From the IMG/VR virus record IMGVR_UViG_2711768060_000011: DNA of 36,364 bases. One strand, 5' to 3'. This document shows, piece by piece, positions 1 through 36,364 of this stretch (its first letter is position 1; each line of letters starts with the position of its first letter). A model generated the notes under the pieces. That model worked only from the letters and a program-made list of their open reading frames with translations. It did not search any database and was not told where the DNA came from. This DNA is from a virus (Duplodnaviria > Heunggongvirae > Uroviricota > Caudoviricetes). The position numbers and the translations under genes are program-made.

Positions 1-432
1 ATGGAAAAGACATATTATTTTAATCCCTCTGATTCGGGATTTTATATTTCACCAGATAGCCAAACCATTCCTGAGAACGCTACGAAAATAAACTTTACTA
101 TTTATTCTGAGTTCGCAGGAGTTGCATGGCCTGATGGTAAAATACTTGGTTCAGATAAAAATGGTTTTCCAGCATGGCAGGATGCGCCACCACTTACCAG
201 CGAAGAATTAATCTCAATCGCTGAATCAAATAAACAGCGATTAGTTAATCAGGCCAACGAATACATGAACAGCAAACAATGGCCTGGTAAAGCGGCGATT
301 GGTCGTCTGAAAGGTGAGGAACTGGCGCAATATAATTTGTGGCTGGATTACCTGGACGCACTGGAAATGGTCGATACTTCCAGTGCGCCAGATATTGAAT
401 GGCCTACGCCTCCGGCAGTACAGGCCAGATGA
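1..432 (+). CDS. tail fibre assembly protein (Tfa), second copy convergent with the neighbouring tfa
   Basis: ORF begins with ATG at window base 1; C-terminal ...DTSSAPDIEWPTPP matches the conserved Tfa C-terminal motif (lambda Tfa ...DTSTAPDIEWP); 3' end overlaps the minus-strand tfa by 29 nt. Confidence 0.7.
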   Translation: MEKTYYFNPSDSGFYISPDSQTIPENATKINFTIYSEFAGVAWPDGKILGSDKNGFPAWQDAPPLTSEELISIAESNKQRLVNQANEYMNSKQWPGKAAIGRLKGEELAQYNLWLDYLDALEMVDTSSAPDIEWPTPPAVQAR

Positions 433-1006
433 CATCCGGCGCGGTGCTGATATCTGTTGCCGTCACCGCGTCAATGTAATCCAGCACAGTGTTAAGTCGG
501 GTGGTCTCTGCCTGCATCAGCTTCCGCCCGGCCTGCAATTTCAGTTGAATCAGACTAATGGAAGCCATTGCAGTATCAATCAGTGACTGACGTTGTGCTT
601 CTGCCGCGTCTACTGCGGCGCTATGCTGTGTCTCAGTATCCGTCACCCATTTCTCACCATCCCATTTATCGTATGGCGTTAACGGGGCGATAGTGGTTGT
701 TTTTTCGGGGTAATCACCCGGAGTTGTGATTTCTTTGGCGTCTCCCGTTTCGGTGTTATAGACGATTTCACCGCGATGGTCTGGTACATATTCCCATGAG
801 TTAAAATCTGCAGAGCGGCAGATTGCATAACCAGCTTTGTAGGTGCCTGGAGCATCTAAACAGGAATATGCCGGAATGCCGACACCAACAGCAAGATATT
901 CAGTTGAAGCTGAAATATACTCCCGACTCATGACGTCAAAGTTATAAACAGTAATTTCTCCTGCCATAGTGGCAATTAATTCACTGTTTAATTCTGCGTT
1001 ATTCAT
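404..1006 (-). CDS. tail fibre assembly protein (Tfa)
   Basis: 200-aa ORF ending ...TATDISTAPDVIWPVLPEA (Tfa C-terminal motif); lies immediately downstream of the tail fibre gene. Confidence 0.75.
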   Translation of the reverse strand: MNNAELNSELIATMAGEITVYNFDVMSREYISASTEYLAVGVGIPAYSCLDAPGTYKAGYAICRSADFNSWEYVPDHRGEIVYNTETGDAKEITTPGDYPEKTTTIAPLTPYDKWDGEKWVTDTETQHSAAVDAAEAQRQSLIDTAMASISLIQLKLQAGRKLMQAETTRLNTVLDYIDAVTATDISTAPDVIWPVLPEA

Positions 1007-6612: not shown

Positions 6613-8448
6613 TTACCTGCCAAAGCGCGTATAGCCAACATCATGGCTGACATCAAAACCGCTGGATCGCGTTTCCATAACCCGCATACCCGGAGGCGAA
6701 TTCACAAAAGAGACCTTGATCTCACCATCAACTTTTGGCGCAGAAGCTTTGTTAATCATGAAGGGATTCGGGCCTGTGGCACCGGAGGCGTTGTTTGACT
6801 GAGCCGGATCCACCACCGGATAAGGTGTGTATCCCCGCGCCGGTATTCCCGTCCCATAAGCATCATAAGCACCCGCGCCCCACTGCGCAGAGTTAATGGC
6901 ATCGACCGTGTCACCGGAACTGTCGGTAAACCACTCAATAATTGGCTTCAGCTTGTCCCACATATCCTGAAACCACTTAACAACCGGTCCCCAGTTATTG
7001 ATTACCATCCCCAGCGGCGACCAGGCAAAAACCTTCTTCAGAAGTTCCCGGCCAGCCTCAAAATAAGGACCAATGGTTTCCCAGAGCTTCTTGAAATAAG
7101 GTCCTACAACATCCCAGTTAGTGATAATTAATCCCGCAGCCAGGGCTATCGCCGTCGCAATCATTCCAATCGGCGTCATCGACATGATCCTGCTGACAAT
7201 ACTGATGGCACCGCCAACGCCCATCAATCCCAGTTTCAGAATCGCAAGACCGGCAGCAAGCCCGACGACGCCGCGAATAACCCGGGGATTTTCATCCGCA
7301 AACTTCGTGAATTTTTCCCCCAACTCCCCCAGCCATTGCGTGATATTTTTGGCGTCACCAGAAAATGCGCCGCCAATAGCCGCAAGGCCGTTAGTTGCGG
7401 TCCCCGTCATTGCCTCCCACAGGTTGGACAGCGTACCAAGCTGGGCCTGAACACGTTTATTCAGGCTGGCCTGTTTATTCATCTTCTGCTGGATCTGATC
7501 GTAGCCATCCTTTCCTTTATCGATCAGTGCATTGACCACCTGAAGGGTTTCGGCATCATCACCAAATATTGCCTTAAGTACACCTGTTCGCTTAACGTCG
7601 GTCAGTTTTCGCAGCTTTGCCAGTTGCCTGAACATGTTATCAAGACCGCCAAAACTTCCTTTGCCGTCAGTAAAATCGAGCTGTACCCCGAGTTTCTGGC
7701 GGGCCATGACTTTATTGACGTCCCTGATTTTCTTAACGCTTAATCCGGACTGGATAACTTTTCGCAGGGCATTACCTGCCGACTCCCCGTTCATCCCCAT
7801 CTGATCCATCATGACACTGATGGGGGCAAGACTCTGTGCAGCCTGAAGACCGTCCTTGTTCACCATCTTCAGAACAGAGCTGGTTTTAGTGAAGAATGAC
7901 AGCATGTTGGTGTCGTCAACGCCCAGATAAAACGCCTTCTGAATTGTGTCGAACAGCCCCATCATGTCTTCTGAGACCGTTCCGGTAGCATCCTGCATCT
8001 TTGCGGCAAACTCGGCAGCCGCTTCCGGTGTTTTTTTCAGTTGTACCGCAAGATAAGCTGTCGCTTTACCCACACCGCCAAGAATGTTTTCTGCCGGGAT
8101 CCCCTGACGCACCAGCATCTGCATCATGTTCTGAAAATCAGCTGTTGTACCGGGTAGCTGGTTACCCAGGCCAATAGCCAGTTTATTGATGTCCTGAAAG
8201 CGCTTTCCAACCTCGCCGTTCGCATCCATCATGGCGACTTTCAGCCCGGTGGCGGCGTTTTCCTGATCGGCATAAGATTTCAGGGAAAGCGTCAGACCCG
8301 CTGCCAGTCCGCCACCAAGCGCCAGCCCACCCTGTGACGCTTCTTCCGCCTGGCGTTTAAATCCCCGGATTTTCTTTTGCATTTTCGACAGCGCGGGAGA
8401 AAGCCTGTCGACACCGGTGATCAACGCCTTAAGCTCAAATTCAGCCAT
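6613..8448 (-). CDS. tail tape measure protein
   Basis: 611-aa ORF with long Ala/Gly/Leu-rich helical stretches and a hydrophobic segment, downstream of tube and chaperone genes. Confidence 0.85.
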   Translation of the reverse strand: MAEFELKALITGVDRLSPALSKMQKKIRGFKRQAEEASQGGLALGGGLAAGLTLSLKSYADQENAATGLKVAMMDANGEVGKRFQDINKLAIGLGNQLPGTTADFQNMMQMLVRQGIPAENILGGVGKATAYLAVQLKKTPEAAAEFAAKMQDATGTVSEDMMGLFDTIQKAFYLGVDDTNMLSFFTKTSSVLKMVNKDGLQAAQSLAPISVMMDQMGMNGESAGNALRKVIQSGLSVKKIRDVNKVMARQKLGVQLDFTDGKGSFGGLDNMFRQLAKLRKLTDVKRTGVLKAIFGDDAETLQVVNALIDKGKDGYDQIQQKMNKQASLNKRVQAQLGTLSNLWEAMTGTATNGLAAIGGAFSGDAKNITQWLGELGEKFTKFADENPRVIRGVVGLAAGLAILKLGLMGVGGAISIVSRIMSMTPIGMIATAIALAAGLIITNWDVVGPYFKKLWETIGPYFEAGRELLKKVFAWSPLGMVINNWGPVVKWFQDMWDKLKPIIEWFTDSSGDTVDAINSAQWGAGAYDAYGTGIPARGYTPYPVVDPAQSNNASGATGPNPFMINKASAPKVDGEIKVSFVNSPPGMRVMETRSSGFDVSHDVGYTRFGR

Positions 8449-8582
8449 GTGTGCGTTTCTCCTGCTCTATCCTGTTTGCCTGACTGACCAGCAAGGGAAT
8501 TTCACTGATCGGCATATTCAGCAATTCGAAGGGATTAATGCGCCAGTAGCTGGCGCAGTCAAAGAAGCGATCAGTGAGGTAT

Positions 8583-8858
8583 TCAGCCGTCAGGCTTGGA
8601 GGGAAAACCAGCCACAAGCCACGCCGCTGCATTCAGGTCTGCCGGAGACATCTGGTCGACAGAGTTTTGCGGCACTTTCGCCAGCCGCACAATGTATTTC
8701 GATACCACATGCGCCAGAAGTCTGACGGACTCATCCTGATTCATCTGGTAGGGATACCCCAGCTCGCGGACATCTTTCCCGGTGGGCTCATCAAACTCCA
8801 GTACGGAGAGTGTCTCGCCATGAGCGGTAATCGGTTTCTTTAACTCAAGCTCTTTCAT
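8583..8858 (-). CDS. tail assembly chaperone (G-like); possible frameshift extension into 8441..8632
   Basis: 91-aa ORF between tube and tape measure genes; an overlapping 63-aa ORF in another frame runs to the tape measure start. Confidence 0.5.
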   Translation of the reverse strand: MKELELKKPITAHGETLSVLEFDEPTGKDVRELGYPYQMNQDESVRLLAHVVSKYIVRLAKVPQNSVDQMSPADLNAAAWLVAGFPSKPDG

Positions 8859-9214
8859 TACTGGTAATCCCCTTCTTCACCGTGGAACTCAAGATCAACC
8901 GTCCCTTCTTCGGCATTATGGTTCGCTTCGCCGTGCAGCCAGGCAGACGACAGTACATAGACCTGACCGTTCGCCAGCTCGGCAGTGATGGTCATCTCAT
9001 CAGACGAGGTGATTTTGCTCACCGGAAAATTCTTCGGCACCTTGAAGGTCCCTTTAACATAAGGCGCACGGTGAGTTTCCTTGCGGTCCACTGAACCGTC
9101 CAGGCCGATGATGTCATCATTGACCGTCCTGTTCATGGGCACCTCAATGCCGCCGGTCAGCGATAGCTGCTGACCGTCAATTTTGAAATAACAGGTTCCC
9201 CCGATACGGGCCAT
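8858..9214 (-). CDS. contractile tail tube protein
   Basis: 118-aa ORF immediately downstream of the sheath gene (1-nt overlap), Mu L-M like order. Confidence 0.65.
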   Translation of the reverse strand: MARIGGTCYFKIDGQQLSLTGGIEVPMNRTVNDDIIGLDGSVDRKETHRAPYVKGTFKVPKNFPVSKITSSDEMTITAELANGQVYVLSSAWLHGEANHNAEEGTVDLEFHGEEGDYQ

Positions 9215-10710
9215 TATGCGGACTCCTCTGAATACTGAAGACGGAACTGGTTAACCACGGCAAAGACACGCAACTGGTTAACATAGTCAGGCGGGAACAG
9301 CGTGTTCAGGCGGTTCGGATCGCTGGCATCACGCTCCACAACCAGGTACTGCTTAAAAAGTTCGTAGTTTTCCACGATCCCCGCACGCTCAAGCTGACGG
9401 TAGGTTGCCAGCAGTTCCCCTTTGATCACCGCCGGGGTGACAATCGCCTGACCGGGACCAAAGCGGGTACCGTCGCTGGCAAGCTTGTGACGCCCGTACT
9501 TACTGGTAATGACGGATTTCAGTTTGCGCAGTACATACGCACTGGTATGCAGCGTCTCGCTGTCGAGGTAGCTGTTATCCGCAACCCCGTAAGCGTTTTT
9601 CCTGTACGTGGTGACATCACGCTGAATGCGCAGTACCCCGCTTTCGACATACGCCGTTGCCACGCCATGAGACAGCAAGGTCTGTTGTTCGGTCATCGTG
9701 AACCGTTTCCCCTTCGGCGCAGGCTGCATACCCACCAGCTCACCGGTCTGCGTGGGACGTGCCGGATCGTTGCGGATAAACACCGCTGCGCGGGCGGTAC
9801 GGCTTGCCGCCAGCTCGTCGGCAGGCGTCTGGGTGTCTTTTTCGTACCCCGCCAGGGTAATGTGCTGCTGGTTAAACTGGTCACCTGCGGTCACCAGTTC
9901 TGACAGCGTGCCGATCTTTGCCGTATACACATGACCATACAGCTGACGCGCATAGCTCCAGCGACCGCTGGTATCGTTCATCTCGGTCACCAGCGTGTTA
10001 ACGGAGGCCGTGTCGTTGAACGGCAGGCCGATATAATCAAACGGCTCATCCGCCATTGCAGCCACCGCGCCGGTGAGAACCGGAGCACCCGTTCCGGCGG
10101 TACCCGTCGCCACGGCAATCTGTACGCCCGCTGGCAGCACTTCGCCCCCACCAAAGCCGTAGTAATTGAGGCTGACAGGAATTTCATTCCCGCAAAGCCC
10201 CTTATGACGCGCGGTCAGTGTGACCACGCCTGCCGAAGATGAAGCCGTAAACGGCAGGGTCGGAACGGCATTGATGGCATCCTGGATACTGCTGGCAATC
10301 ATCGTGACGTTATCGCCGTTAGTCACCGGTGCCTGCACGCGGGTACGTCCCACATACACATTCACCGTGCCGGTTTCGGTTGCCGCCCCGGTCACCGTCA
10401 GCGTAACCGTTGCCGCCGCGCCTGTGGATTCAGGAACGGCAATCACATACAGCTCGCCAAACGGGTCAGTCTGGCGATAAGCCTCGACCATACGCGCCAG
10501 CTGACTTCCCGCACCACAAATCTGGCGTGCATAGTCTGCCGACGGCATCAGTACCAGACTGTTGGCAACAATCTCTGCACCGTTATTGGCATGACCAATC
10601 AGCAGCGATGCTCCGCTGTCCTGTGCAGTATTCGCCGCCTGGTTATCCATTTCCGCATAAAACAACGGAACCAGCGTATTCGACGGAATGGTGTTAAAGC
10701 TTATCGTCAT
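9214..10710 (-). CDS. contractile tail sheath protein
   Basis: 498-aa ORF, size and position match Mu L sheath; followed by tube gene. Confidence 0.8.
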   Translation of the reverse strand: MTISFNTIPSNTLVPLFYAEMDNQAANTAQDSGASLLIGHANNGAEIVANSLVLMPSADYARQICGAGSQLARMVEAYRQTDPFGELYVIAVPESTGAAATVTLTVTGAATETGTVNVYVGRTRVQAPVTNGDNVTMIASSIQDAINAVPTLPFTASSSAGVVTLTARHKGLCGNEIPVSLNYYGFGGGEVLPAGVQIAVATGTAGTGAPVLTGAVAAMADEPFDYIGLPFNDTASVNTLVTEMNDTSGRWSYARQLYGHVYTAKIGTLSELVTAGDQFNQQHITLAGYEKDTQTPADELAASRTARAAVFIRNDPARPTQTGELVGMQPAPKGKRFTMTEQQTLLSHGVATAYVESGVLRIQRDVTTYRKNAYGVADNSYLDSETLHTSAYVLRKLKSVITSKYGRHKLASDGTRFGPGQAIVTPAVIKGELLATYRQLERAGIVENYELFKQYLVVERDASDPNRLNTLFPPDYVNQLRVFAVVNQFRLQYSEESA

Positions 10711-14112: not shown

Positions 14113-14799
14113 TTAGAAGTTCAGATTTTTCAGTGCATTCAGTGCAGAGCCCACATCCTCAGCGTCGCGCAGGGACAGTGCGCCATAGCCCCCGGCCATG
14201 AATGCTTTGGCCTGGGTACGGGAGAGTCCGACATCACGCAGGACTCTTTCGATTTTTTTCTGTTCGGGGATTTCCCCGCGGGCCAGTGCGTTCTTGACGT
14301 CGCTGATCCGCGCCTCGTCGTTAGACGGGAACGTCACCAGGCTGACTTCCCAGAGGTCGATTTCTTTCAGCAGAAAGGCTTCTTTGCTCCGGTCGTATTC
14401 CCAGTCTTTCAGGACGTACCCAATAGAAAGGCCGGTTAACGAACCGGCCTTCATGTGTGCATGTGCGCGTTTTGCGAGGGGATCATCATCAATAAGCAAC
14501 CGTCCCCTGACGTAAAGCCCGACATCGTCTTCCTTCATTTCGGTGTAAACACCGATGGGTTCATCCATGCGGTGCTGCCAGAGCAGCGCAGGTAACGCTT
14601 TTCTGTCACTCCACGCCCGCAGGGAAGCAGCAAATGCCCCGGACATCACCACATCATCGTGGCTGTCCTTTACACCAAAGACGGAGCCATACCCTTCAAA
14701 CTCACCGGAGTCACTGACAGATTTCAGACTCAGCGGTACATCAAGACGTTGTTTCGTCTGCATTGGCGTTATCCTTCTGCTTACCGGCCTTACTGCCAT
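14113..14799 (-). CDS. prohead maturation protease (HK97 / S78 family)
   Basis: 228-aa ORF between portal and capsid genes; the true start may be the internal Met at 14763. Confidence 0.8.
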   Translation of the reverse strand: MAVRPVSRRITPMQTKQRLDVPLSLKSVSDSGEFEGYGSVFGVKDSHDDVVMSGAFAASLRAWSDRKALPALLWQHRMDEPIGVYTEMKEDDVGLYVRGRLLIDDDPLAKRAHAHMKAGSLTGLSIGYVLKDWEYDRSKEAFLLKEIDLWEVSLVTFPSNDEARISDVKNALARGEIPEQKKIERVLRDVGLSRTQAKAFMAGGYGALSLRDAEDVGSALNALKNLNF

Positions 14800-15982
14800 C
14801 GGAGGGTTTCGTGGTCATGTTCATCGGTGTGAGATAGACATCACCACCGGGACGCGGATTCATATCTTCCAGGTCGCGGCAGTCATTGGGAGAGTAAATT
14901 CCCCAGTTGATCCCGGTGGCGTAGGCTTCAAAACGGGACTTCATATCCCCGCGCAGTAACGCCCCGGCGTTAAATTTGGCGTAATAAACGCCCTGCTTAC
15001 TTTTTCGTACCAGTCCGGTGTTGATCCGCTGTTCGATGCGGGTCAGATACGGCACCAGTGAATAGTTGATAAATCCCAGCCCCAGCTCTTCAATATTGTT
15101 GAAGGTGGCGCGATCGGTGTTCTGCACCATGTGCAACGGCACCCGGAACAGACGACAGATTTCTTCAAGCTGAAACTTGCGGGTTTCCAGGAACTGGCTG
15201 TCCTCGGCGTTCAGCGCCATCGACTTCCAGTCCAGCCCCATCTCAAGGATCATCGGGCGGTGAGCATTACCAAGCCCGGTGTGACGCTCCTCAAAATCTT
15301 TCTTCAGGCGCTCATAAGCCTGATCTGACAGCGTCTGCTCTGTACGCAACACACCCGACGTCACCGCGCCATTGCTGAACAGTCTGGCCCCGTGCTCTTC
15401 GGTCGCAGCTGCCAGCGATATTGCCTCGCGGGCATAGGCGATGGGATTCAGCCCCACCAGTCCGTCCAGCGTCAGCGTGCGCACATGCCAGATATCCTCC
15501 TGGCTCAGTACATCCGTGGAGCCATCCGGGAATGTGACCTGATAGATCGGCTCCCAGCTACTGTTAAGCTTCGGTACCACACAGCCGGGATCGACGGGCA
15601 GCAGTTCAGCCACTTCGCCAAATGCTTTCACTTTGTAGGCGTAAAAGTTTCCCCGCAGGCACAGACAGGTGACCACCAGCTCCCAGAACTCCTGCGGCGT
15701 CATATAGCCATTGGGATGCGTGGAGATCAGCTTATGCAGACGTTCGCCAGTGGCTCTCAGCTTCAGGCTGCCGTTCAGGTGATACAGGTTGCAGGGCAAC
15801 ATCCCGACCGACTCCGCCAGCACCCTGACACAGGAAAAAACCGCCGTCAGTCGCATGGCCCGCTGGCTGCTGATCTGCTTTCCGGTATAGGTGTCGTAGG
15901 ACAACCCGATAGCATCCGCCAGCTCTGCTGGCGTGGTCATCGGTGCGTCACTTTTTCGTTGAAATAATCCCGAAAAGAACAC
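14741..15982 (-). CDS. portal protein (HK97 family)
   Basis: 413-aa ORF downstream of the large terminase, upstream of the protease. Confidence 0.85.
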   Translation of the reverse strand: MFFSGLFQRKSDAPMTTPAELADAIGLSYDTYTGKQISSQRAMRLTAVFSCVRVLAESVGMLPCNLYHLNGSLKLRATGERLHKLISTHPNGYMTPQEFWELVVTCLCLRGNFYAYKVKAFGEVAELLPVDPGCVVPKLNSSWEPIYQVTFPDGSTDVLSQEDIWHVRTLTLDGLVGLNPIAYAREAISLAAATEEHGARLFSNGAVTSGVLRTEQTLSDQAYERLKKDFEERHTGLGNAHRPMILEMGLDWKSMALNAEDSQFLETRKFQLEEICRLFRVPLHMVQNTDRATFNNIEELGLGFINYSLVPYLTRIEQRINTGLVRKSKQGVYYAKFNAGALLRGDMKSRFEAYATGINWGIYSPNDCRDLEDMNPRPGGDVYLTPMNMTTKPSDGSKAGKQKDNANADETTS

Positions 15983-18986: not shown

Positions 18987-19012
18987 TAAAAAACCGCCCG
19001 AAGGCGGTTTTT
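18987..19012. terminator. bidirectional Rho-independent terminator after the 192-aa cargo gene
   Basis: Stem ACCGCC/GGCGGT with CGAA loop, flanked by an A-run upstream and T-run downstream. Confidence 0.65.
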
Positions 19013-19015
19013 ACA

Positions 19016-19594
19016 TCATGCATATGCATAATTTTCTTCTGCAACAAGCTTTGCAACCTGTCTATCAGGAAGAAGTAAAACAGCCTGCTCTAGGCTTTGT
19101 TTTTCAGTGAGTAACTCTAAAAATTGGTTGGCTGTTTGCAGAACTTTTGCCACAGACCAAATTGTTAACATAATTGGAAGAGAATATATAATCAACATTA
19201 AACTATTGAAAAGCAAAACCTTATCCAAGATTTTAGCTGATTCTCGTATCGTTGCTATTAACTTCCCGTTATCACATTTCTGAAAAAGTTCAACCTCACG
19301 TTTGATCCTTGCCTGTATCTCTGGATTAGCACTGAGCCGCCTTTGAGCCCTCACTCTGTTGGGCAAAGTCATAAGGTGCAAACGATTGATTGCGTTGTTT
19401 AAGGCCTCATGTACAAGCTCAGCCGCTTGTACATCATCTTTACTTTTATTCGAAATTATTTGATTTCTAACTATATCTCTCAGTTCAAAAAGCTTATTGC
19501 GGTAATGCAAACGAACAGATGGAAGTAGTATCCTTTCGTAAATAAAATGCACTGCTGCCATACATAACAGCACATAAAAAAGCACTGTCAGCAT
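19016..19594 (-). CDS. membrane protein of unknown function (cargo gene)
   Basis: 192-aa ORF with AGGAG Shine-Dalgarno; hydrophobic N-terminal helix and a second hydrophobic segment near residue 130; low GC; followed directly by a bidirectional terminator. Confidence 0.5.
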   Translation of the reverse strand: MLTVLFYVLLCMAAVHFIYERILLPSVRLHYRNKLFELRDIVRNQIISNKSKDDVQAAELVHEALNNAINRLHLMTLPNRVRAQRRLSANPEIQARIKREVELFQKCDNGKLIATIRESAKILDKVLLFNSLMLIIYSLPIMLTIWSVAKVLQTANQFLELLTEKQSLEQAVLLLPDRQVAKLVAEENYAYA

Positions 19595-19799
19595 AGTTTC
19601 TCCTTAGGGATTAATTGTCGCTTGATCCCAGTGGCACTTGTGTTCTCGCCTGTTGATGCAGAGTTTTTTCTGCTCCAATACGACGAGCTTCCACGCTAAA
19701 ACATCTGCGCATCATACTTGCATGCCAAGACCACGCTAGGATAACAATGACACAAAGTCCATACCCAATTAGAGAGTGATCTGCTAAGCCGTCAATAAT

Positions 19800-19997
19800 T
19801 CAATGCGCTAGTATTCCTAATTCCTCTGATGGCATGCGCCAAGCTGCAATCATCAGTACAATACTTATAGTTATAGGCACTAGTTGACCGGTTGTCATGG
19901 CTTTGAGCATCACATCTCGCCATGCCTGAGCAAAACTTACTGAATGTTGCCCTTTACCTGATTTTCCACCTTTGCCCTTTGACTTACCCATTATCAT
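19800..19997 (-). CDS. small membrane protein (hypothetical)
   Basis: 65-aa ORF with Lys/Gly-rich N-terminus and one hydrophobic helix; low-GC island; coding status uncertain. Confidence 0.3.
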   Translation of the reverse strand: MIMGKSKGKGGKSGKGQHSVSFAQAWRDVMLKAMTTGQLVPITISIVLMIAAWRMPSEELGILAH

Positions 19998-20529
19998 CCA
20001 GCCGCGGTTATGATTTTAGGTAAATTCTACAGCTATAAATAACAAAATAAAACATCCACTTACTACATCTCTTCTTCCATTAGCCATATTTCTCACTTGC
20101 AAATCAAGCTTTTTTTGCACAACAAGGCATTATTCTCCTCAACTTTCTATATGTTGTGTCCCAACAGCTAACAAACAACTATCACCCACATCACATATGT
20201 AGGATGCTTAACTTTTTTAAAAGTTCATTATCACTTAACTAAGAACCATATTTTCAGACAATTATCTACAGCTGCCATCCATACTTTGCTGTATGCCTGT
20301 ATATTTTTCTTTGACTACTTATCGAGCTCATCCAAGTAATCAACAGCCGCACAGATAGGTCTCACCCGGTCCCGCCCTGTGTCAATTAACTCAACCTTGC
20401 ATGTCCTACTTGTGCGCAGTTCGTGATCAACGCCACTATCAGACATATGATTAACAGTTTGCTATACCTTGTTGGTATCTTTCGTTGCTTATATCCAGCG
20501 CTCTGCTATAGCCTAGATGTTGAGTCCTC

Positions 20530-20658
20530 CTATTCGTAACGCTTCTGATCAGCGTTCATTTGTACTTCGCTAGTACCGTATGAATATCCTAGACCGAATA
20601 CCCTAGCGGTAGCAGTGCTAAACGCAGCAGCTAGCAAGATAATCATTTCGATACCCAT
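20530..20658 (-). CDS. candidate small hydrophobic peptide (42 aa)
   Basis: ATG at 20658 preceded by GGGAG (spacer 4 nt); translation MGIEMIILLAAAFSTATARVFGLGYSYGTSEVQMNADQKRYE; in an otherwise ORF-poor low-GC stretch. Confidence 0.25.
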   Translation of the reverse strand: MGIEMIILLAAAFSTATARVFGLGYSYGTSEVQMNADQKRYE

Positions 20659-20749
20659 TGTGCTCCCACATCAGAGTAGATCTCAGCAGATTGAACAGAA
20701 TGTGCTAGGAATAACAATTCGAAAAAAGCTATCGTTCAATCCGCCCCTG

Positions 20750-21187
20750 TTAATCCAGGCATTGAGTTCTGATGTATTCCTGTAGGTAATTAACCTGTGC
20801 AGTTATCTTGTCGATTCCACTTCGGAGGCGGTAATAATTGAGTTCAGCATCTGCTGTAAGTCTTGGGCTTTCTCCATCGCCCATGCTGCTGGCTCCGGTC
20901 GTTGACTTTGCACAGGTGGCGGCGACTTGCAGCCGCTTACGCCCAGCAGAAACATCATCACGGAGACTTTCGATAGTCGCGTTAGCATCAGCAAGCTCCT
21001 TTGTATATCTGGCATCGAGTTCTGCTACATCATGTTGACGCTTCTGCATGTCAGCGATTGTGGATGTGGCCTTATCGCGCTGCTCTTTGTAGGTAATGGC
21101 GTTATCACGGTAATGATTAACCGCCCATGACAGGCAGACGATGATGCAGATAACCAGAGCGGAGATAATCGCGGTTACTCTGCTCAT
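20750..21187 (-). CDS. Rz: i-spanin Rz
   Basis: 145-aa ORF starting [34 protein letters not shown], near-identical to the lambda Rz N-terminus as recalled; 4-nt overlap with R. Confidence 0.9.
20803..20958 (-). CDS. Rz1: o-spanin Rz1 (lipoprotein embedded in the +1 frame of Rz)
   Basis: Embedded ORF starting [10 protein letters not shown] with a lipobox before Cys, followed by a Pro-rich tract ([16 protein letters not shown]) as in lambda Rz1. Confidence 0.75.
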
Positions 21188-21964: not shown

Positions 21965-22175
21965 TGTTTCGCCGCCGACAAAAGGCCGGGACGTTAAATG
22001 TCAGAATGCAGGCTCACGGGTTAATTTAACGACAAAGCACGGAGTTGATGCTCCCCGCAAGCCTTGAATAAAAAAGCCAGCATATGGCTGACAACAGAGG
22101 GTTAAGCAATGTCAATTCATCAGGCGAAGGCAACAAAAAGCCCCAGCAAATACCAGGGCTAGACAGATATGAATA

Positions 22176-22355
22176 CTACTGTTCTTCTATTTTTTTACTG
22201 GAAATCAATCCACTGGTCATTTCATAACCGTTTGTGTGGCCACAGTAAGGGCAAATAATTGGCTCTTTATCCTTTCCTCCTGGATAGCCTCCACTGTGCT
22301 CCCAATAAATAAACTCTTTATTGCAACTTTCATTACTACATCTTGTATTGCTCAT
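22176..22355 (-). CDS. small zinc-ribbon protein (59 aa), below the ORF-track size cutoff
   Basis: ATG at 22355 preceded by GGGAG; translation MSNTRCSNESCNKEFIYWEHSGGYPGGKDKEPIICPYCGHTNGYEMTSGLISSKKIEEQ contains CxxxxC...CxxC; between the Q terminator and the holin. Confidence 0.4.
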   Translation of the reverse strand: MSNTRCSNESCNKEFIYWEHSGGYPGGKDKEPIICPYCGHTNGYEMTSGLISSKKIEEQ

Positions 22356-22425
22356 TGCATCACTCCCTCAGTAAGTAAGGAAATAAATACATAGCATAAC
22401 CAAATCATTATTCGAAATTTGAGCA

Positions 22426-22451
22426 CAAAAAAAACCCGCTCGATGGCGGGT
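22426..22451 (-). terminator. tR'-like Rho-independent terminator downstream of Q
   Basis: On the minus strand, a 6-bp GC-rich stem (ACCCGC/GCGGGT) followed by a 9-nt U-run, about 110 nt downstream of the Q stop. Confidence 0.6.
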
Positions 22452-22490
22452 TCAAGAAGATTATCAACGGTAGACACACAAAGCCCATCG

Positions 22491-22505
22491 TTAGGATAAT
22501 CCTAA
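22491..22505. promoter_or_regulatory. perfect palindrome TTAGGATAATCCTAA in the candidate late promoter/qut region
   Basis: 15-bp palindrome between the Q stop and the tR'-like terminator; overlaps a possible -35 TTGCAT / -10 TAGGAT pair on the minus strand. Confidence 0.3.
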
Positions 22506-22558
22506 CCATATTTTTTGAAAAATGCAAGAATCATGTCGCCATCTTCGGCGAAAATCAT

Positions 22559-23311
22559 TTATCTTGTCACTCTCCTCAATTGTGTCTCAGCATATGCTTC
22601 TTCCTGCCAGCACTTTGTAACCAGTTTATCAATGACATCTGCATATCCTTTGTACCACTGATAATCCGTCAGGTCTGGTACCAGCTTCTGGACATGATGC
22701 CGCGCCAGTGTGGTTGGTAAACGGCTAAACCGGTTTCCATTGCAACGCCCACAAATCTTATAAACAGGCGTGCCATGAAGCCGGGTCCTTTTTTCATCCA
22801 GGACAATACCTTTACCCTTACACCCTCTGCACGCTGTGCTGACTTCTCCCTTACCATGACAATGCTGACATAGTTCCTTTACCCACTCTTCCTTGATAAC
22901 AGATTCCCCGCTTCTGGATTGTTTCACCACCTCGCGCAATACATTATGAAATCCAGTACCAGCACAATGCTCACAGCGAGCCTTACTTGCCGCAGACCTG
23001 GAATAATCAGCAAAGGCAAAATTCACAAGGTAAGGGATGATCTGTAACCGGATTTCTTCACTCAATTTGTTCAATGTCGGGTTATCCAGTGCCATCGCGT
23101 AATTGAGCAGACCTTCAATCGCAAACTGAGGATCCTGAACGCCAACTTTTGCCAGGAATAAGGTAAACCCAAGCGGTGCTTTCGACTGCACCATCCCCTG
23201 TGCAGCCATCACATCCGTAATCGTTAAACCACCTGAGCCTGTCGCCGGTGCGTCATCACTCAATTTTGGAGATTTTGGGGAGTAATATTTTGGTAAGGCT
23301 TCAAGGTTCAT
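22559..23311 (-). CDS. Q: late-gene antiterminator Q (lambda Q family)
   Basis: 250-aa ORF with YSPKSPKLSD...TDVMAAQGM N-terminus, ADYSRSAA...RCEHCAGTG and CGRCNG zinc motifs, and ...VTR C-terminus resembling lambda Q; followed by a terminator. Confidence 0.8.
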   Translation of the reverse strand: MNLEALPKYYSPKSPKLSDDAPATGSGGLTITDVMAAQGMVQSKAPLGFTLFLAKVGVQDPQFAIEGLLNYAMALDNPTLNKLSEEIRLQIIPYLVNFAFADYSRSAASKARCEHCAGTGFHNVLREVVKQSRSGESVIKEEWVKELCQHCHGKGEVSTACRGCKGKGIVLDEKRTRLHGTPVYKICGRCNGNRFSRLPTTLARHHVQKLVPDLTDYQWYKGYADVIDKLVTKCWQEEAYAETQLRRVTR

Positions 23312-28880: not shown

Positions 28881-29118
28881 CTGATGAATCTTTAATCTTT
28901 TGAAAAATATCTGGACGTAATTTTTCTTTTGATATGCCAGTGGTCTTTTCAATGAATATCGAGAGCTTTGCAGGGGGACGCTTTTCTCTGTTCAACCAGT
29001 TCCAGACATGTTGTTGCTTTACTAAATGACCGCTGCTGGCTGTGAGCTTCCGAGCCAATTCTGATTGACCACCAGCCAGAGCGATTGCCTCCGATAAGGC
29101 TAATTGCTCAGGTGTCAT
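28870..29118 (-). CDS. Cro/YdaS-like HTH regulator
   Basis: 82-aa ORF divergent from the cI-like repressor; HTH-like segment SELARKLTASSGHLVKQQHVWNWL. Confidence 0.7.
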   Translation of the reverse strand: MTPEQLALSEAIALAGGQSELARKLTASSGHLVKQQHVWNWLNREKRPPAKLSIFIEKTTGISKEKLRPDIFQKIKDSSDEK

Positions 29119-29138
29119 AGCTTTCTCCTTTTTTGGTA

Positions 29139-29230
29139 GTTAAGTTGTTACGAGCTGCAAGAATACAACATTAACAACTTTCACCACAACTTTTAGGTGT
29201 TGGAAAGCTAAAACATAAAGTTGTAACCTC
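29139..29230. promoter_or_regulatory. right operator/promoter region between the divergent cro-like and cI-like genes
   Basis: Three copies of AAGTTGT(T)A in both orientations (TAAGTTGTTA 29141-29150, TTAACAACTT 29171-29180, AAAGTTGTAACC 29217-29228) within the 135-bp divergent intergenic region. Confidence 0.6.
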
Positions 29231-29253
29231 ATCAAAAAAGAGAGGGATATGTT

Positions 29254-29940
29254 GTGAAAACACTGGCAGAACGATTAAAGATAGGTAGAGAGAAAGCTGG
29301 CATGAGCCAAGCTCAACTAGCTGAAAAAATTGGACTTTCACAACAATCTGTAGCCAAAATAGAGAATGGCGAAACTCTACAACCGCGCAAAATTAAAGAA
29401 ATTGCAAAAGTTTTAGGTGTATCACAAAAGTGGTTACAACTTGGTATTGAAGACAACGCATCCATACCTGATCTTGTTGTAAAAGAAGCAGAAAGCACCG
29501 CATTAGACCCCGATATTTTCGTAAACATTCCTGTTTTAGATGTCGAGTTATCGGCAGGTAACGGATGTCTGGCTGAAATAGTTGAATCAGCTATTGACTG
29601 GTTTCCGTTAAGAAGAGCAGATTTGAGAAAATCTGGCGTATGTGCATCTAATGCCAAGATCGTACAAATATGGGGGAACAGTTTATTACCGGTTCTCAAT
29701 AATGGAGATCTTGTTGCCGTTGATATTTCTCAAACCGTTCCTATTCGTGATGGCGATCTTTATGCCGTACGAGATGGTGTATTGCTAAGGGTTAAAATAC
29801 TTATCAACTTACCTGACGGTGGCTTGATTCTTAGAAGCTTCAACAAAGATGAGTACCCAGATGAAATACTCACCTTTGAAGATAGACGAGCCAGAATTCA
29901 TGTTATAGGTAGGGTATTCTGGTCATCGCGAACTTGGTAA
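29254..29940 (+). CDS. cI-like prophage repressor (HTH_XRE plus S24 LexA-type autopeptidase); GTG start
   Basis: N-terminal HTH (MSQAQLAEKIGLSQQSVAKIENGE), Ala-Gly cleavage site (LSAGNG), C-terminal S24-like Ser (GNSLLP) and Lys (LLRVKIL); AGAGGG Shine-Dalgarno before GTG at 29254. Confidence 0.9.
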   Translation: MKTLAERLKIGREKAGMSQAQLAEKIGLSQQSVAKIENGETLQPRKIKEIAKVLGVSQKWLQLGIEDNASIPDLVVKEAESTALDPDIFVNIPVLDVELSAGNGCLAEIVESAIDWFPLRRADLRKSGVCASNAKIVQIWGNSLLPVLNNGDLVAVDISQTVPIRDGDLYAVRDGVLLRVKILINLPDGGLILRSFNKDEYPDEILTFEDRRARIHVIGRVFWSSRTW

Positions 29941-30942
29941 TGCATCGAAAAGCATTTCTTCAGAAATAATTTTAAGTTTTGCACCATTATCATCCCTATA
30001 AGATATAGCCTTTTCGATCTTCCTTCCGTGACTAGAGAATTTCCAATCACGGGAGGAAAGCGTCCCAATTACTAAAAAATCCAACTTTTGAGTAATTCCA
30101 CTACTGATGTTCCCACCAGCATTTTTAATCAAATTTTCAACTACGGCTCTCTTTCCTGCAACAAAAGTGCCTGTAAGACAATAGGTTTTACCCTCTAACT
30201 CTATCGAAGCCCCTACATCAATAGGCAGCCTGGTCGCCAAACCATCCACCACCCCACTTTCCAAGTCACATCCTGTGAAGTCTACTAATGCCTTATGTAG
30301 AGTTAAACTCTCATCTTCAGTAATAACACCATCTTTAAGAATTTCCTTTACAAGTGCATAAAGTTTTTTTCCTGGGTAGTTGTTCTTCAAAGCTCCATTT
30401 TGCTCAAGCCACCAATTAAGATATCTTATTTCTTCTTGAGTTAAGTTCCGATCAGCAATTAATCCTTTACATAGTCCATTAAGTAAATGGACATCTACAT
30501 CCTTGGAGTAAAAATCAATTTCAGGGATATCAAGAATTTCCCTCTGTATTTGGAGAAGGCTATTTTTAAGGTCATCACGTTCTTCTGATGTGATTATTCC
30601 ATCCGCAAGAATATCCGACACCCGAGCAGATAGACTTTTTATAACTCCATTATTGATAATCTGCTTTGCTTCAAGTAACCATGTATCTAAGTAAAGAACC
30701 TCCTCTTCACGGACAACTCCATCTGCAATGATTCCATCAATGATGCTAATCAAGTTAGCAAATAACTTGTCCCGGTTTCGTGTAATTAAAAGCGTAAAGC
30801 GCGTCTTCCATACAACCTCCTTTTTTTGATAATCCTTGCGCTCCTTGGCTACTCGTTCAAACCACATAAAGTTGTTGGCAACATTCAAAACCACAACTAA
30901 ATTACAACTTAAAGGTGTTAAGACAACGAACAGGCAGGACAC
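29923..30942 (-). CDS. repeat-containing protein with C-terminal BRCT domain; likely true start at ATG 30867
   Basis: C-terminal ~90 aa (KTYCLTGTFVAGKRAVVENLIKNAGGNISSGITQKLDFLVIGT...) resembles the LigA-type BRCT domain; four ~45-aa repeats sharing ...L.DG.IT.EE...L...L; the first codon at 30942 is GTG and the N-terminal extension overlaps operator-like motifs. Confidence 0.6.
   Translation of the reverse strand: MSCLFVVLTPLSCNLVVVLNVANNFMWFERVAKERKDYQKKEVVWKTRFTLLITRNRDKLFANLISIIDGIIADGVVREEEVLYLDTWLLEAKQIINNGVIKSLSARVSDILADGIITSEERDDLKNSLLQIQREILDIPEIDFYSKDVDVHLLNGLCKGLIADRNLTQEEIRYLNWWLEQNGALKNNYPGKKLYALVKEILKDGVITEDESLTLHKALVDFTGCDLESGVVDGLATRLPIDVGASIELEGKTYCLTGTFVAGKRAVVENLIKNAGGNISSGITQKLDFLVIGTLSSRDWKFSSHGRKIEKAISYRDDNGAKLKIISEEMLFDALPSSR
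30866..30930. promoter_or_regulatory. OL-like operator cluster upstream of the plus-strand early operon
   Basis: Same motif as the right operator region: AAAGTTGTTGG (30868-30878), CCACAACTAA and ATTACAACTT (30891-30910). Confidence 0.5.
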
Positions 30943-31016
30943 CCACGAAGTAGCCCGCCCGGTACGTACGAAGACCGGGATGATTCGTTAGCGGATGATT
31001 TCAGTGGAGAGAATAG

Positions 31017-33840: not shown

Positions 33841-34101
33841 ATGAGGTTATCAAAAATGCTTCAAATGCTGACACTTGAGGAATGGGCTGCGGAAAAATTT
33901 AGGAGTAATCCTCCAAGTGTGTCCACATTGCGTCGTTATGCTAAGCAGAATTTATTTTGTCCACCGGCAATGAAACAAGGTCGACTATGGCGAGTACGTG
34001 AGGACGCAGAGTTAGTTGGGGAATTAGTTACTCCTGTCATCAAGAAAAGTGATTCTATTATTCTACAAAGGATTTTAAGTAATGGCAGCCAGACCACGTA
34101 A
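33841..34101 (+). CDS. excisionase (Xis-like DNA-binding protein)
   Basis: 86-aa ORF immediately upstream of and overlapping the integrase start by 20 nt. Confidence 0.5.
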   Translation: MRLSKMLQMLTLEEWAAEKFRSNPPSVSTLRRYAKQNLFCPPAMKQGRLWRVREDAELVGELVTPVIKKSDSIILQRILSNGSQTT

Positions 34102-35212
34102 AAATAATGTTTCAGTCCCGAACTTGTATCCACTTTATAGTAGAAAAGTAAATAAAGTCTATTGGCGATATAAACATCCAGTGACCGGGAAGTTTCATTC
34201 TTTAGGCACAAACGAAGCTGAAGCCATTGCTATTGCCACTGAGGCAAATTCACGCCTGGCTGAGCAAAGAACCCGGCAGATTCTGGCTATCAGTGACAGG
34301 ATCGCAACCAGCAAAGGAAAAGCAATCACAACGTCAACCTGGTTAGATCGCTATCAAGCAATCCAGGATGACAGACTGGAAAGTGGCGATATAAAGCTCA
34401 ACACCTATAAACAGAAAGCCAAACCAGTATCCTTGCTCAGGGAACGAGCAGGAATGAAATTAATTTCATCAGTTGATGTAAGGGATATAGCGCAATTGCT
34501 TGACGAGTATATCACTGCCGGGCAACCGAGGATGGCGCAAGTAGTCCGCTCCGTTCTAATTGATGTATTCAAGGAGGCACAACACTATGGGGAAGTCCCT
34601 CCGGGCTATAATCCAGCACAGGCAACCAAACAACCCAGAAGAAAAATTACCCGACAACGGTTAAGTCTTGAAGAATGGCAAAAAATCTTTGATATCGCAG
34701 ATGCCAGTCATCGTTATATGGGGAATGCCATGCTGTTAGCACTGGTTACCGGCCAGAGGTTAGGTGATATCTCGCGTATGAAATTTAGCGATATTTGGGA
34801 TGATCATCTCCATGTCATCCAGGAAAAAACCGGGAGCAAAATCGCCATCCCGCTTTCTCTTCGTCTCAACGCGATTAACTGGAGTTTACGCGATGTAGTC
34901 GCCCGCTGCCGTGACTATGCAGTCAGCCCATACCTTGTGCATTTTTTTCGTACCACTTCACAGGCTGAACGTGGCGCGCAGGTTAAATCCAATACATTGA
35001 CGACGAATTTTAGTAGAGCGAGAGATTTGGCAGAAATTGACTGGGGTAATGGCTCACCAGCAACATTCCATGAACAAAGGTCTTTATCTGAACGTCTGTA
35101 CAAAGAACAGGGGGTAGACACACAAAAACTACTTGGCCATAAAACGCAACAACAAACCGATCGTTATCATGATGATCGGGGAAAAGATTGGATGTATATC
35201 CACCAGTTTTAA
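34082..35212 (+). CDS. int: site-specific tyrosine integrase (lambda Int family)
   Basis: 376-aa ORF; C-terminal LLGHKTQQQTDRYHDDRGKDW resembles the lambda Int C-terminus (GHKSDTMASQYRDDRG) with the catalytic Tyr. Confidence 0.9.
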   Translation: MAARPRKNNVSVPNLYPLYSRKVNKVYWRYKHPVTGKFHSLGTNEAEAIAIATEANSRLAEQRTRQILAISDRIATSKGKAITTSTWLDRYQAIQDDRLESGDIKLNTYKQKAKPVSLLRERAGMKLISSVDVRDIAQLLDEYITAGQPRMAQVVRSVLIDVFKEAQHYGEVPPGYNPAQATKQPRRKITRQRLSLEEWQKIFDIADASHRYMGNAMLLALVTGQRLGDISRMKFSDIWDDHLHVIQEKTGSKIAIPLSLRLNAINWSLRDVVARCRDYAVSPYLVHFFRTTSQAERGAQVKSNTLTTNFSRARDLAEIDWGNGSPATFHEQRSLSERLYKEQGVDTQKLLGHKTQQQTDRYHDDRGKDWMYIHQF

Positions 35213-35250
35213 CTATGAACCTCTTCAAAAGACTCCCTATAAACTATGAA
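35211..35250 (+). repeat. direct 9-bp repeat AACTATGAA (two copies) immediately downstream of int
   Basis: Copies at 35211-35219 and 35242-35250 in the AT-rich int/DUF262 intergenic region. Confidence 0.25.
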
Positions 35251-35311
35251 TATTGAACAATTTTATTATTGATGTAAAATAACCCTCCTTTTCATAGTCA
35301 GGAGAATAGTC

Positions 35312-36364
35312 ATGAATACAAATGTAGGGCAGATCACATTAATTGATCTAATTTCAATGCTTGAGAGAAAAGAACTAATAATTAACAAGGATTATCAGCG
35401 CGGAAATGGAATATGGCCACCATTTGCAAAGAGTTATTTCATAGACACTATTCTAGAAAATTATCCTTTCCCCAAAATATATTTATATCAAGCATTTGAC
35501 AGGACAAACGAAAGGCCAATTAAAGAAATTGTTGATGGCCAGCAACGAGTAACAACTCTCGTTGATTTTTATAAAAACAAATTTGCACTTACTTCGGCAT
35601 CGAAGAAGTATTCTGGCATGTATTTTAATGATTTGCCCGATGATGCAAAAAGATGTTTTATTAGTTATCAAGTTGAAACATCCACAGTTTATTCAGCAAG
35701 CAGGGCTGAATTACTCGAAATGTTTAGACGAATGAATGCTTATACATCTCCACTAACATCAGCAGAAAAACGGCATGCTACTTTTCAAGGTGCATTTAAG
35801 TGGTATATCGTTGAAAAAGCAGATACCCACGCTGAGCTTTTAGAGATTTATAATATATTGTCACCCAAAATATTAGCCAGAATGGGTGATGCAGAATTTA
35901 TCTCAGATATGGCAATACTCATTGATAGAGGGCTTTGTTCAAAGTCGGCACCTGCAACCGAAGCTATTTATAAAAAATACGATGATGATTTTCCTTTAGA
36001 GAATATCTATAACGAGAGAATTGATTATTTCTTCAATTTATTGGCGGAAGATTTTTCCGAATTACGTAATTCATTTATGATGAAATCGTATGTTGTTCAC
36101 TCATTATTTTGTGCTATTACCGCATTAAAATTTGGTTTCCCCGGAAGTGATGAACTTGAAAATGAACTCGGTTTCACGGCTAACCCAAACTTTGATGTAA
36201 ATCCTTCCCGTGTAATTCCGATTCTCTTAGAGATGGCTGATGCCCATGAAATTCAGGACGAAGATGGCCCTTATGCAGCCTATGTAACAAGTTGTTTATC
36301 ATCAACAACCAAGCTACCACAACGAACCACGCGCACAAAAGAACTGATTAAAGCATTCTTATGA
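35312..36364 (+). CDS. DUF262 (GmrSD N-terminal / ParB-like) domain protein, stand-alone
   Basis: 350-aa AT-rich ORF with AGGAGA Shine-Dalgarno; N-terminal DYQRGNGIW and DGQQR motifs diagnostic of DUF262; no HNH/DUF1524 motif seen in the C-terminal half; stop is the last codon of the window. Confidence 0.75.
   Translation: MNTNVGQITLIDLISMLERKELIINKDYQRGNGIWPPFAKSYFIDTILENYPFPKIYLYQAFDRTNERPIKEIVDGQQRVTTLVDFYKNKFALTSASKKYSGMYFNDLPDDAKRCFISYQVETSTVYSASRAELLEMFRRMNAYTSPLTSAEKRHATFQGAFKWYIVEKADTHAELLEIYNILSPKILARMGDAEFISDMAILIDRGLCSKSAPATEAIYKKYDDDFPLENIYNERIDYFFNLLAEDFSELRNSFMMKSYVVHSLFCAITALKFGFPGSDELENELGFTANPNFDVNPSRVIPILLEMADAHEIQDEDGPYAAYVTSCLSSTTKLPQRTTRTKELIKAFL

Follow-up and report, generated by a model that had tools for sequence, protein, structure and literature searches.

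Introduction

The DUF262 domain of GmrSD, BrxU and SspE binds DNA or DNA modifications, and nucleoside triphosphate (NTP) binding and hydrolysis switches the attached nuclease (PMC10952713, PMC12065111). It is only in these proteins, where they are coupled to DUF1524 DNA nucleases, that DUF262 sensors are understood mechanistically; in Menshen, Dazbog and PD-T4-2 they drive other effectors. Here we analyse a DUF262 gene (gene A) that closes a 36,364-nucleotide Caudoviricetes sequence (IMG/VR record IMGVR_UViG_2711768060_000011; the whole of this stretch is referred to as the window), and show that it is followed, just past the end of the window, by a gene for a small HEPN-fold protein (gene B) with which it forms a mobile cassette. 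We consider it probable that the cassette is a two-gene moron operon of an e14-type prophage, lodged in the slot between intE and icd, in which the product of gene A senses a DNA cue and licenses gene B as a HEPN ribonuclease (RNase) in an anti-phage response resembling abortive infection.

Two described systems are of particular relevance to this locus. PD-T4-2 is a 'DUF262, HEPN' pair from E. coli ECOR65 with two open reading frames (ORFs) spanning 1540 bp (QOYX01000002, 338334-339873; Vassallo et al. 2022, PMC9519451), the first product, PD-T4-2A, being RCO39066.1. Its deletion from ECOR65 strongly raised the plaquing efficiency of T4, protection against which was validated both natively and in K-12, and its second product, PD-T4-2B, has about 165 amino acids (aa) and an HHpred match to HEPN_RiboL-PSP at 97.8% (PMC9519451). 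Menshen is composed of NsnA, the ABC ATPase NsnB (AAA_15 and DUF3696) and NsnC, which carries inPIN plus BECR or another nuclease (PMC12065111; Millman 2022; Li et al. 2025). Our literature search found no paper on the pair of genes described here.

Results

Gene A is a DUF262 NTPase with a helical C-terminal domain

The features of the two genes are as follows.

35312-36364, plus strand: gene A (WP_001095712.1), 350 aa, ParB-like NTPase of the DUF262/GmrSD_N type, C-terminal domain helical
35354-35785, plus strand: DUF262 (ParB/Srx-fold NTPase) domain of gene A, Pfam envelope, residues 15-158
35393-35416, plus strand: motif I of gene A, YQRG..W (Y28-Q29-R30-G31, W35)
35534-35548, plus strand: motif II of gene A, DGQQR (D75-R79)
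35723-35737, plus strand: motif III of gene A, FRRMN (F138-N142)
35792-36361, plus strand: all-helical C-terminal domain of gene A, about residues 161-350, from DSSP of the AlphaFold2 model
14574-15224 of locus L001, plus strand: gene B, starting 9 nt past the end of the window (36364)

An earlier interpretation of the window, made without database searches (hereafter the sequence-only reading), had assigned gene A to DUF262 by its QRG and DGQQR motifs and had seen no DUF1524/HNH motif in its C-terminal half, and in these respects it was borne out. In a hidden Markov model (HMM) search residues 15-158 match Pfam GmrSD_N/DUF262 (PF03235) with 72.5 bits (E=6.7e-20) against a gathering cut-off of 33.2 bits, and RefSeq holds the identical 350-aa coding sequence (CDS) as WP_001095712.1. 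The motif set of the domain, QRxxxW, DGxQR and FxxxN (PMC12065111), is present in full, as Q29-R30..W35, D75GQQR79 and F138RRMN142. All three motifs are invariant in an alignment of 24 homologues with 46-85% identity, and across 44 aligned orthologues Q29, R30, W35, D75-R79, F138, R140 and N142 are invariant, with Y28 (42/44) and R139 (38/44) less strictly kept.

The AlphaFold2 model of gene A (mean predicted local distance difference test score, pLDDT, 86.5) has a ParB-like alpha/beta N-terminal domain followed by a C-terminal half in which DSSP finds helices only and pLDDT is mostly >90. A Pfam scan of gene A gave no DUF1524/HNH or other nuclease domain. Conservation extends into this C-terminal region, where R338 and R341 are invariant and position 313 is glutamate in 40 and aspartate in 4 of the 44 orthologues. 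We regard the helical domain as probably DNA-binding, by analogy with the 'ParBDB' domain (PMC12065111) of NsnA, GmrSD-M and SspE-M, to which it would be equivalent. The best matches among solved structures, limited in alignment to the N-terminal part, are BrxU (7p9k), SspE (6jiv) and ParB-type proteins, and the ParB-fold CTPases ParB, Noc and KorB are among the structural neighbours; no parS-like or HTH features were identified for the cassette. Gene A is predicted to be the sensor or regulator of a two-gene system.

The HEPN fold and conserved RNxxxH motif of gene B

The window closes on the final base (36364) of gene A's TGA stop codon, and it is for this reason that the sequence-only reading took gene A to be 'stand-alone'. 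Extending the sequence downstream, as that reading had proposed, recovered both a partner gene and, after it, an icd-embedded attachment (att) site on the attL side. Gene B (WP_021519677.1, a RefSeq 'hypothetical protein') encodes 216 aa on the same strand, separated from the gene A stop codon by 8 bp, and the two ORFs together span 1712 bp. It was found beyond the window in complete E. coli chromosomes that carry xis-int-DUF262 at or near 100% identity.

Gene B has no significant match in Pfam, PADLOC, NCBIfam or, by profile search, PDB sequences, and the domain scan gave no DUF1524/His-Me signature. Structural matching places it as an all-helical protein with the HEPN helical-bundle fold. 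Its matches include the HEPN toxin of HEPN-MNT (7ae2), SO_3166 (5yep), YutE, an AMPylated HEPN toxin (8xdj), TTHA0636, HI0074 and the C-domain of kanamycin nucleotidyltransferase, with the HEPN domains of Csx1/Csm6 lower in the list. The segment R152-N153-A-C-A-H157 is an Rx4H motif of the HEPN type (RNxxxH), whose R, N and H are kept without exception in 30/30 family members and in 44/44 orthologues, the latter having a mean pairwise identity of only about 30%. Further conserved elements are an R-x-E-P-T-W-G-D block and several invariant tryptophans.

A homologue search with gene B returned 62 proteins, each about 216 aa long and one of them labelled 'Abi-like' by its source, and an exhaustive profile search gave 810 clusters at E<=1e-3 among 1.84 billion representatives. 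Among the best 150 of these 810 clusters the full-length proteins have about 210-220 aa, the others are fragment-like and none is a longer multi-domain protein. When 30 family members were scanned singly against Pfam, Abi_2 was weakly matched in 5/30 and HEPN_RiboL-PSP in 2/30, the best match to the latter (E=0.0038) lying below the curated threshold. We conclude that gene B is a stand-alone HEPN-fold protein of an uncurated sequence family with a catalytic-type motif. HEPN domains with Rx4-6H motifs act as dimeric endoribonucleases on tRNA or mRNA and stay off until infection, as in DARNA, and by analogy with them gene B would be an RNase with RNA as its target.

In strain S1-JOR-02-A (NZ_CP145634.1, locus L093) an extra A in an A6 run shifts the frame of gene B at about residue 99, ahead of RNxxxH, and the RefSeq annotation has no CDS at this place. 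Either the effector has genuinely been lost in this strain or the homopolymer was misread in sequencing.

The two genes are inherited and mobilised as a unit

Relatives of gene A with 28-77% identity were collected together with their surroundings at 80 genomic loci. They come from Gammaproteobacteria, Betaproteobacteria and Alphaproteobacteria, from Bacteroidota, Acidobacteriota, Nitrospirota, Cyanobacteria, Chloroflexota, Planctomycetota, Verrucomicrobiota and Spirochaetota, and from two metagenome-assembled genomes, one of Saccharimonadales and one of Thermoplasmatales. A gene B HMM match lies downstream on the same strand in 77/80 loci; it is directly adjacent or overlapping in 75 of these, and about 1.6-2.1 kb off, beside truncated gene A matches, in the other 2. 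The 3/80 loci that gave no gene B match are truncated gene A matches or run into a contig end. Viral sequences show the same arrangement, with gene A directly upstream in 9/10 gene B loci of IMG/VR and the tenth cut by a contig end. The description of gene A as stand-alone must therefore be given up.

Pairwise identities of A and of B correlate across the 44 orthologues (r=0.92, a value reached in 0/999 Mantel permutations), and because of this correlation we consider that the two genes are inherited and diverge together, with no sign in these sequences of effector shuffling. It should be noted that the correlation also reflects common descent and is by itself no proof of physical interaction.

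An independent, natural delimitation of the mobile unit is provided by the superintegron of Vibrio cholerae (locus L088), in which A (8001-9047) and B (9050-9700) lie exactly between two consecutive attC-type repeats of ~132 nt, at 7795-7926 and 9702-9833. The 17 kb of this locus (CP053809.1, 360661-377707) hold nineteen such ~132-nt repeats, a superintegron array, and a neighbouring cassette at 483-1232 encodes a Bro-N/BstA_C protein, a BstA-like abortive-infection signature. Elsewhere the pair is found in a P2/186-like prophage of Serratia, directly after the CI repressor gene, and beside Mu-type tail genes in Pseudomonas protegens. A check for plasmid carriage gave no match for gene B in PLSDB.

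In P. protegens gene B (locus L090, 9051-9702) is present yet uncalled by the annotator. The second ORF of PD-T4-2 ('No ID') is likewise unannotated in ECOR65. Small HEPN partners are thus repeatedly missed by gene callers, and annotation-based surveys therefore undercount such pairs.

The cassette occupies an exchangeable cargo slot inside an e14-type prophage

The genes upstream of the cassette, and the spacer that separates it from them, are these.

33841-34101, plus strand: xisE, excisionase (Pfam Exc, E=1.8e-12; RefSeq xisE), overlapping the start of int
34082-35212, plus strand: intE, lambda-type tyrosine integrase of an e14-like prophage (Pfam and RefSeq intE)
35213-35311, plus strand: int-gene A spacer, 99 bp, with a promoter-like site and a Shine-Dalgarno sequence

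The block xis-int-DUF262 is found at or near 100% identity in nine complete E. coli chromosomes. Directly downstream of gene B lie the icd terminator and then, on the opposite strand, the phage-borne 3' end of icd (attL side), and at the other end of the prophage pinE and mcrA are followed by a 168-bp icd pseudogene. Each end of the prophage carries a copy of the icd 3' end, about 165 bp running as far as the stop codon, and the two copies differ by a few substitutions. Such a duplication is the known arrangement of e14, and the annotated e14 feature of K-12 starts 165 bp inside icd. Given this e14-like duplication, the cassette is phage DNA and lies inside the prophage, between intE and attL, which settles a question that the sequence-only reading had held to be undecidable from the window. 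An apparent free phage, ON470584.1 'Escherichia phage vB_EcoM-689R6' (locus L087), proved to be a prophage prediction, the partial record including host icd, rluE, nudJ, mnmA and hflD, and should not be taken for the genome of a packaged phage.

The integrase (Arm-DNA-bind_1, E=7e-37; Phage_integrase, E=4e-18) forms the left wall of a slot whose content varies between prophages. In K-12 e14 the same slot holds ymfD, ymfE and lit, which encodes the Lit cell-death peptidase, the classical T4 late-gene exclusion protease. The cassette takes the same physical position, from intE to the icd-embedded att, as the lit cargo, to which it is unrelated in sequence and mechanism. In prophages with an int about 94-95% identical at the DNA level (loci L084-L086) the slot holds either a DNA adenine methylase and an AAA ATPase or an AAA ATPase and a 187-aa protein, and this cargo matches defence models, namely PD-Lambda-5_B (361 bits) and AriA/PD-T4-4_A/PtuA/HEC-04-type ATPases. 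A related integrase occurs in about 500/5426 complete E. coli genomes and the cassette in 9/5426, always with both genes, in a single chromosomal copy and at >=99.9% identity. The cassette is thus an accessory 'moron' in a defence hotspot with exchangeable cargo. Two further points of the sequence-only reading were correct, namely that gene A is AT-rich (GC content 0.356, compared with 0.55 in the structural genes and 0.507 across the entire window) and that it follows int closely, at a site where anti-phage genes often cluster; the gap from the int stop codon (35212) is 99 bp and the slot is a cargo hotspot.

Some of the alternative cargo deserves comment in its own right. At L084 5903-8542 the Dam-type methylase with the PD-Lambda-5_B match adjoins an AAA ATPase (HEC-04/AriA/PtuA-like), a neighbour that differs from the ParB/HEPN protein reported for PD-lambda-5. 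At 5937-8023 of L085 and L086 an ABC ATPase with AriA/PD-T4-4_A/NsnB-like matches stands next to the 187-aa protein, which has no PADLOC match, and this pair is possibly another uncharacterised two-gene system of the icd-intE slot. At the other end of the prophage, L003 4085-5978 holds mcrA, which encodes a 5-methylcytosine-specific type IV endonuclease, with pinE and the icdC pseudogene, and defence-type cargo therefore lies beside both att sites.

Within the spacer, a Shine-Dalgarno sequence AGGAG (35300-35304) stands 8 nt before the ATG of gene A, and a consensus scan finds a promoter-like TTGAAC-16 nt-TAAAAT at about 35253-35280. As a promoter of the cassette's own this site is only suggestive. 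In the same scan promoter-like sites are not more numerous in the region than shuffled expectation, and we therefore do not claim an independent promoter.

Comparison with PD-T4-2, Menshen and the GmrSD group

In PADLOC the best match of gene A is NsnA of Menshen (E=8.5e-32; residues 7-255, profile positions 50-281 of 385), followed by PD-T4-2_A (E=9.5e-14, 49 bits; residues 12-184, aligned to positions 42-220 of the 363 in the profile) and a type II REase-associated model. The SspE match is negligible (E=0.019).

The cassette and PD-T4-2 are alike as two-gene E. coli operons with the DUF262 gene first, a small HEPN gene second and no DUF1524, and HEPN_RiboL-PSP, the Pfam family of PD-T4-2B, is the one weakly matched by 2/30 gene B family members. 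However, gene B is longer (216 aa compared with about 165 aa), the ORFs span 1712 bp instead of 1540 bp, and PADLOC PD-T4-2_B matches neither gene B (E<=10) nor any of the 30 family members. PD-T4-2_A matches only the N-terminal domain of gene A, and more weakly than NsnA does, in this comparison by profile and description. We therefore file the cassette as PD-T4-2-like in architecture, a DUF262 sensor with a HEPN effector, and not as a demonstrated member of that family.

Menshen NsnA shares with gene A the combination of ParB-DUF262 with a helical ParBDB-type domain, and the motifs QRxxxW, DGxQR and FxxxN. No NsnB-type ABC ATPase is encoded between int and icd, nor adjacent to the pair in the Vibrio, Serratia and Pseudomonas loci, and PADLOC gives no NsnC match for gene B, whose fold is HEPN, or for the 30 family members. 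In contrast to Menshen, the cassette has its effector, a HEPN protein, in the gene that immediately follows the sensor gene, and no ABC ATPase transducer.

GmrSD, BrxU and SspE likewise have the N-terminal DUF262 NTPase domain and a helical domain after it, but the cassette lacks their DUF1524 His-Me nuclease both in cis and in the neighbouring gene, and its predicted chemistry is RNA cleavage by HEPN, whereas theirs is DNA cleavage or nicking. On the effector side, the cassette has no MNT antitoxin of the kind that accompanies the HepT/MntA (type VII toxin-antitoxin) HEPN toxins. Gene B forms a sequence family separate from minimal HEPN toxins and from Abi-type HEPN proteins (Abi_2/AbiD-F, RiboL-PSP, DARNA/PD-T7-3), and exceeds the minimal toxins by the R-x-EPTWGD block, several invariant tryptophans and roughly 60-80 residues.

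Other described systems were considered and set aside. No Dzb model of Dazbog (DzbAB) appears among the PADLOC matches of gene A (E<=1) or gene B (E<=10). The Vibrio homologue is neither WonAB, an ABC ATPase with a PD-(D/E)xK nuclease, nor GrwAB, which contains DUF1524 (both from WASA V. cholerae). The HEC systems described by Payne et al. (2024) do not include this pair either: HEC-05/06 resemble GmrSD and contain DUF1524, and the HEPN protein HEC-08 carries zinc fingers. DARNA/PD-T7-3 is a single-protein HEPN system and serves as a mechanistic analogy only.

Discussion

The domain identities, the conservation of catalytic motifs, the strict pairing and co-divergence of the two genes, their mobility as a pair and their location in a defence hotspot inside a prophage are observed directly. 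From these we infer an anti-phage activity, an RNA target, a direction of regulation and a type of trigger, and the cassette is most likely an anti-phage system constructed along the lines of PD-T4-2. According to the model, the product of gene A would sense an infection cue on DNA, either the phage DNA as such or the same DNA in a modified or unusual state, and would use NTP binding and hydrolysis as a switch. Gene B would stay off as long as the cell is uninfected, and would then be licensed to cut RNA, whether tRNA or mRNA. Such cleavage would stop translation and block the phage that superinfects, and the infected cell would probably die in the process, as in abortive infection.

A bolder version of this reading is that the cassette represents a distinct, widespread and unnamed 'minimal Menshen-like' anti-phage family, in which a ParB-fold NTPase of the NsnA type, as the sensor of phage DNA, licenses its dedicated HEPN RNase without the mediation of an ABC-ATPase transducer, unrelated at the family level to PD-T4-2 and hence an independent wiring of DUF262 to an RNA effector. 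We put this forward tentatively, as a possibility that falls somewhat short of even chances.

The main rival to the sensor-effector model is a toxin-antitoxin (TA) or addiction module, in which gene B is a HEPN toxin and gene A its protein antitoxin, the pair mainly stabilising the prophage or the integron cassette instead of sensing phage. The best structural matches of gene B are indeed HEPN toxins of type II/VII TA systems, the tight two-gene operon lies on mobile elements and in an integron cassette array, settings in which TA modules are common, and the possibly inactivating frameshift of gene B in one strain would suit a toxic gene. However, gene A encodes an NTPase of 350 aa whose catalytic motifs are fully conserved and which has a DNA-binding-type domain, and so is far more elaborate than an antitoxin; the cassette has none of the MNT nucleotidyltransferases that serve as the known antitoxins of HEPN proteins; and the gene order, with the large regulator first, together with the hotspot position, matches sensor-effector defence systems. 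We therefore judge a TA module unlikely. It should be noted that TA and abortive-infection roles are not mutually exclusive and that this rival overlaps mechanistically with the explanation that we prefer.

It could also be argued that the cassette is a degenerate or minimal Menshen system, with gene A an orphan NsnA left over from NsnABC or partnered with a distant NsnB and NsnC. NsnA is the best PADLOC match of gene A, and the ParB-DUF262 and ParBDB architecture is as described for NsnA, but the adjacent genes in E. coli, Vibrio, Serratia and Pseudomonas include neither an NsnB-type ABC ATPase nor an NsnC inPIN effector, and gene B itself does not match NsnC. Since A and B stay paired across phyla and travel as a cassette complete in itself, a remnant is very improbable.

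The sequence-only reading had raised the prospect of a split GmrSD-type type IV restriction enzyme, with gene A as the GmrS-like half and a DUF1524/HNH partner that cuts modified phage DNA. Part of this stood, in that DUF262 is common to GmrSD, BrxU and SspE, the latter two supplying the best solved-structure matches of gene A, and a partner does exist beyond the window. That partner, however, has no DUF1524/His-Me signature and is an all-helical HEPN protein with RNxxxH; no further gene lies between gene B and icd, the V. cholerae cassette consists of these two genes only, and the SspE match is negligible. At the level of domain content the split-enzyme reading is refuted, and we give it scarcely any weight; the closest described systems are instead PD-T4-2 by architecture and Menshen NsnA by sequence.

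A housekeeping role in phage or host, with gene A acting like its structural neighbours ParB, Noc and KorB in prophage partition, replication or transcription control and gene B as an accessory, is the least credible reading and can be ruled out, since only 9 of about 500 E. coli genomes with a related integrase (9/5426 overall) carry the cassette, sister prophages hold unrelated cargo in the same slot, its GC content is atypical, it recurs in integron cassettes and unrelated prophage types, and no parS-like or HTH features were identified.

The cassette is an uncharacterised variant of a known architecture and a useful experimental candidate that will not surprise specialists. With one sensor and one HEPN effector in 1.7 kb, native to E. 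coli and delimited by an integron, it offers a compact and tractable model in which the cue sensed by a ParB-like NTPase and the switching-on of an RNase can be studied. Current detection models see only an orphan 'NsnA' and would miss the cassette, which exposes a shortfall in the annotation of defence systems. The slot between icd and intE in e14-like prophages, where lit resides, now joins the prophage defence hotspots with exchangeable cargo.

Additional features of the prophage

Elsewhere in the window, the tail-fibre-assembly ORFs at 1-432 (plus strand) and 404-1006 (minus strand) are in the opposite orientation to those of the otherwise identical RM7190 prophage (L003 2520-3525), which fits flipping of the Pin (pinE) invertible segment between strains. 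In the low-GC stretch 29001-31000, a gene at 29923-30942 (minus strand; GC about 0.40), annotated in RefSeq as a BRCT domain-containing protein, adjoins and overlaps the XRE/CI-type repressor gene at 29254-29940 and is possibly a further moron or an exclusion gene. Low GC content (0.40-0.44) also marks two islands in the lysis/late-regulation region, at 19001-21000 and 22001-23000, whose small ORFs, for example 19016-19594 (minus strand), may be additional accessory genes.
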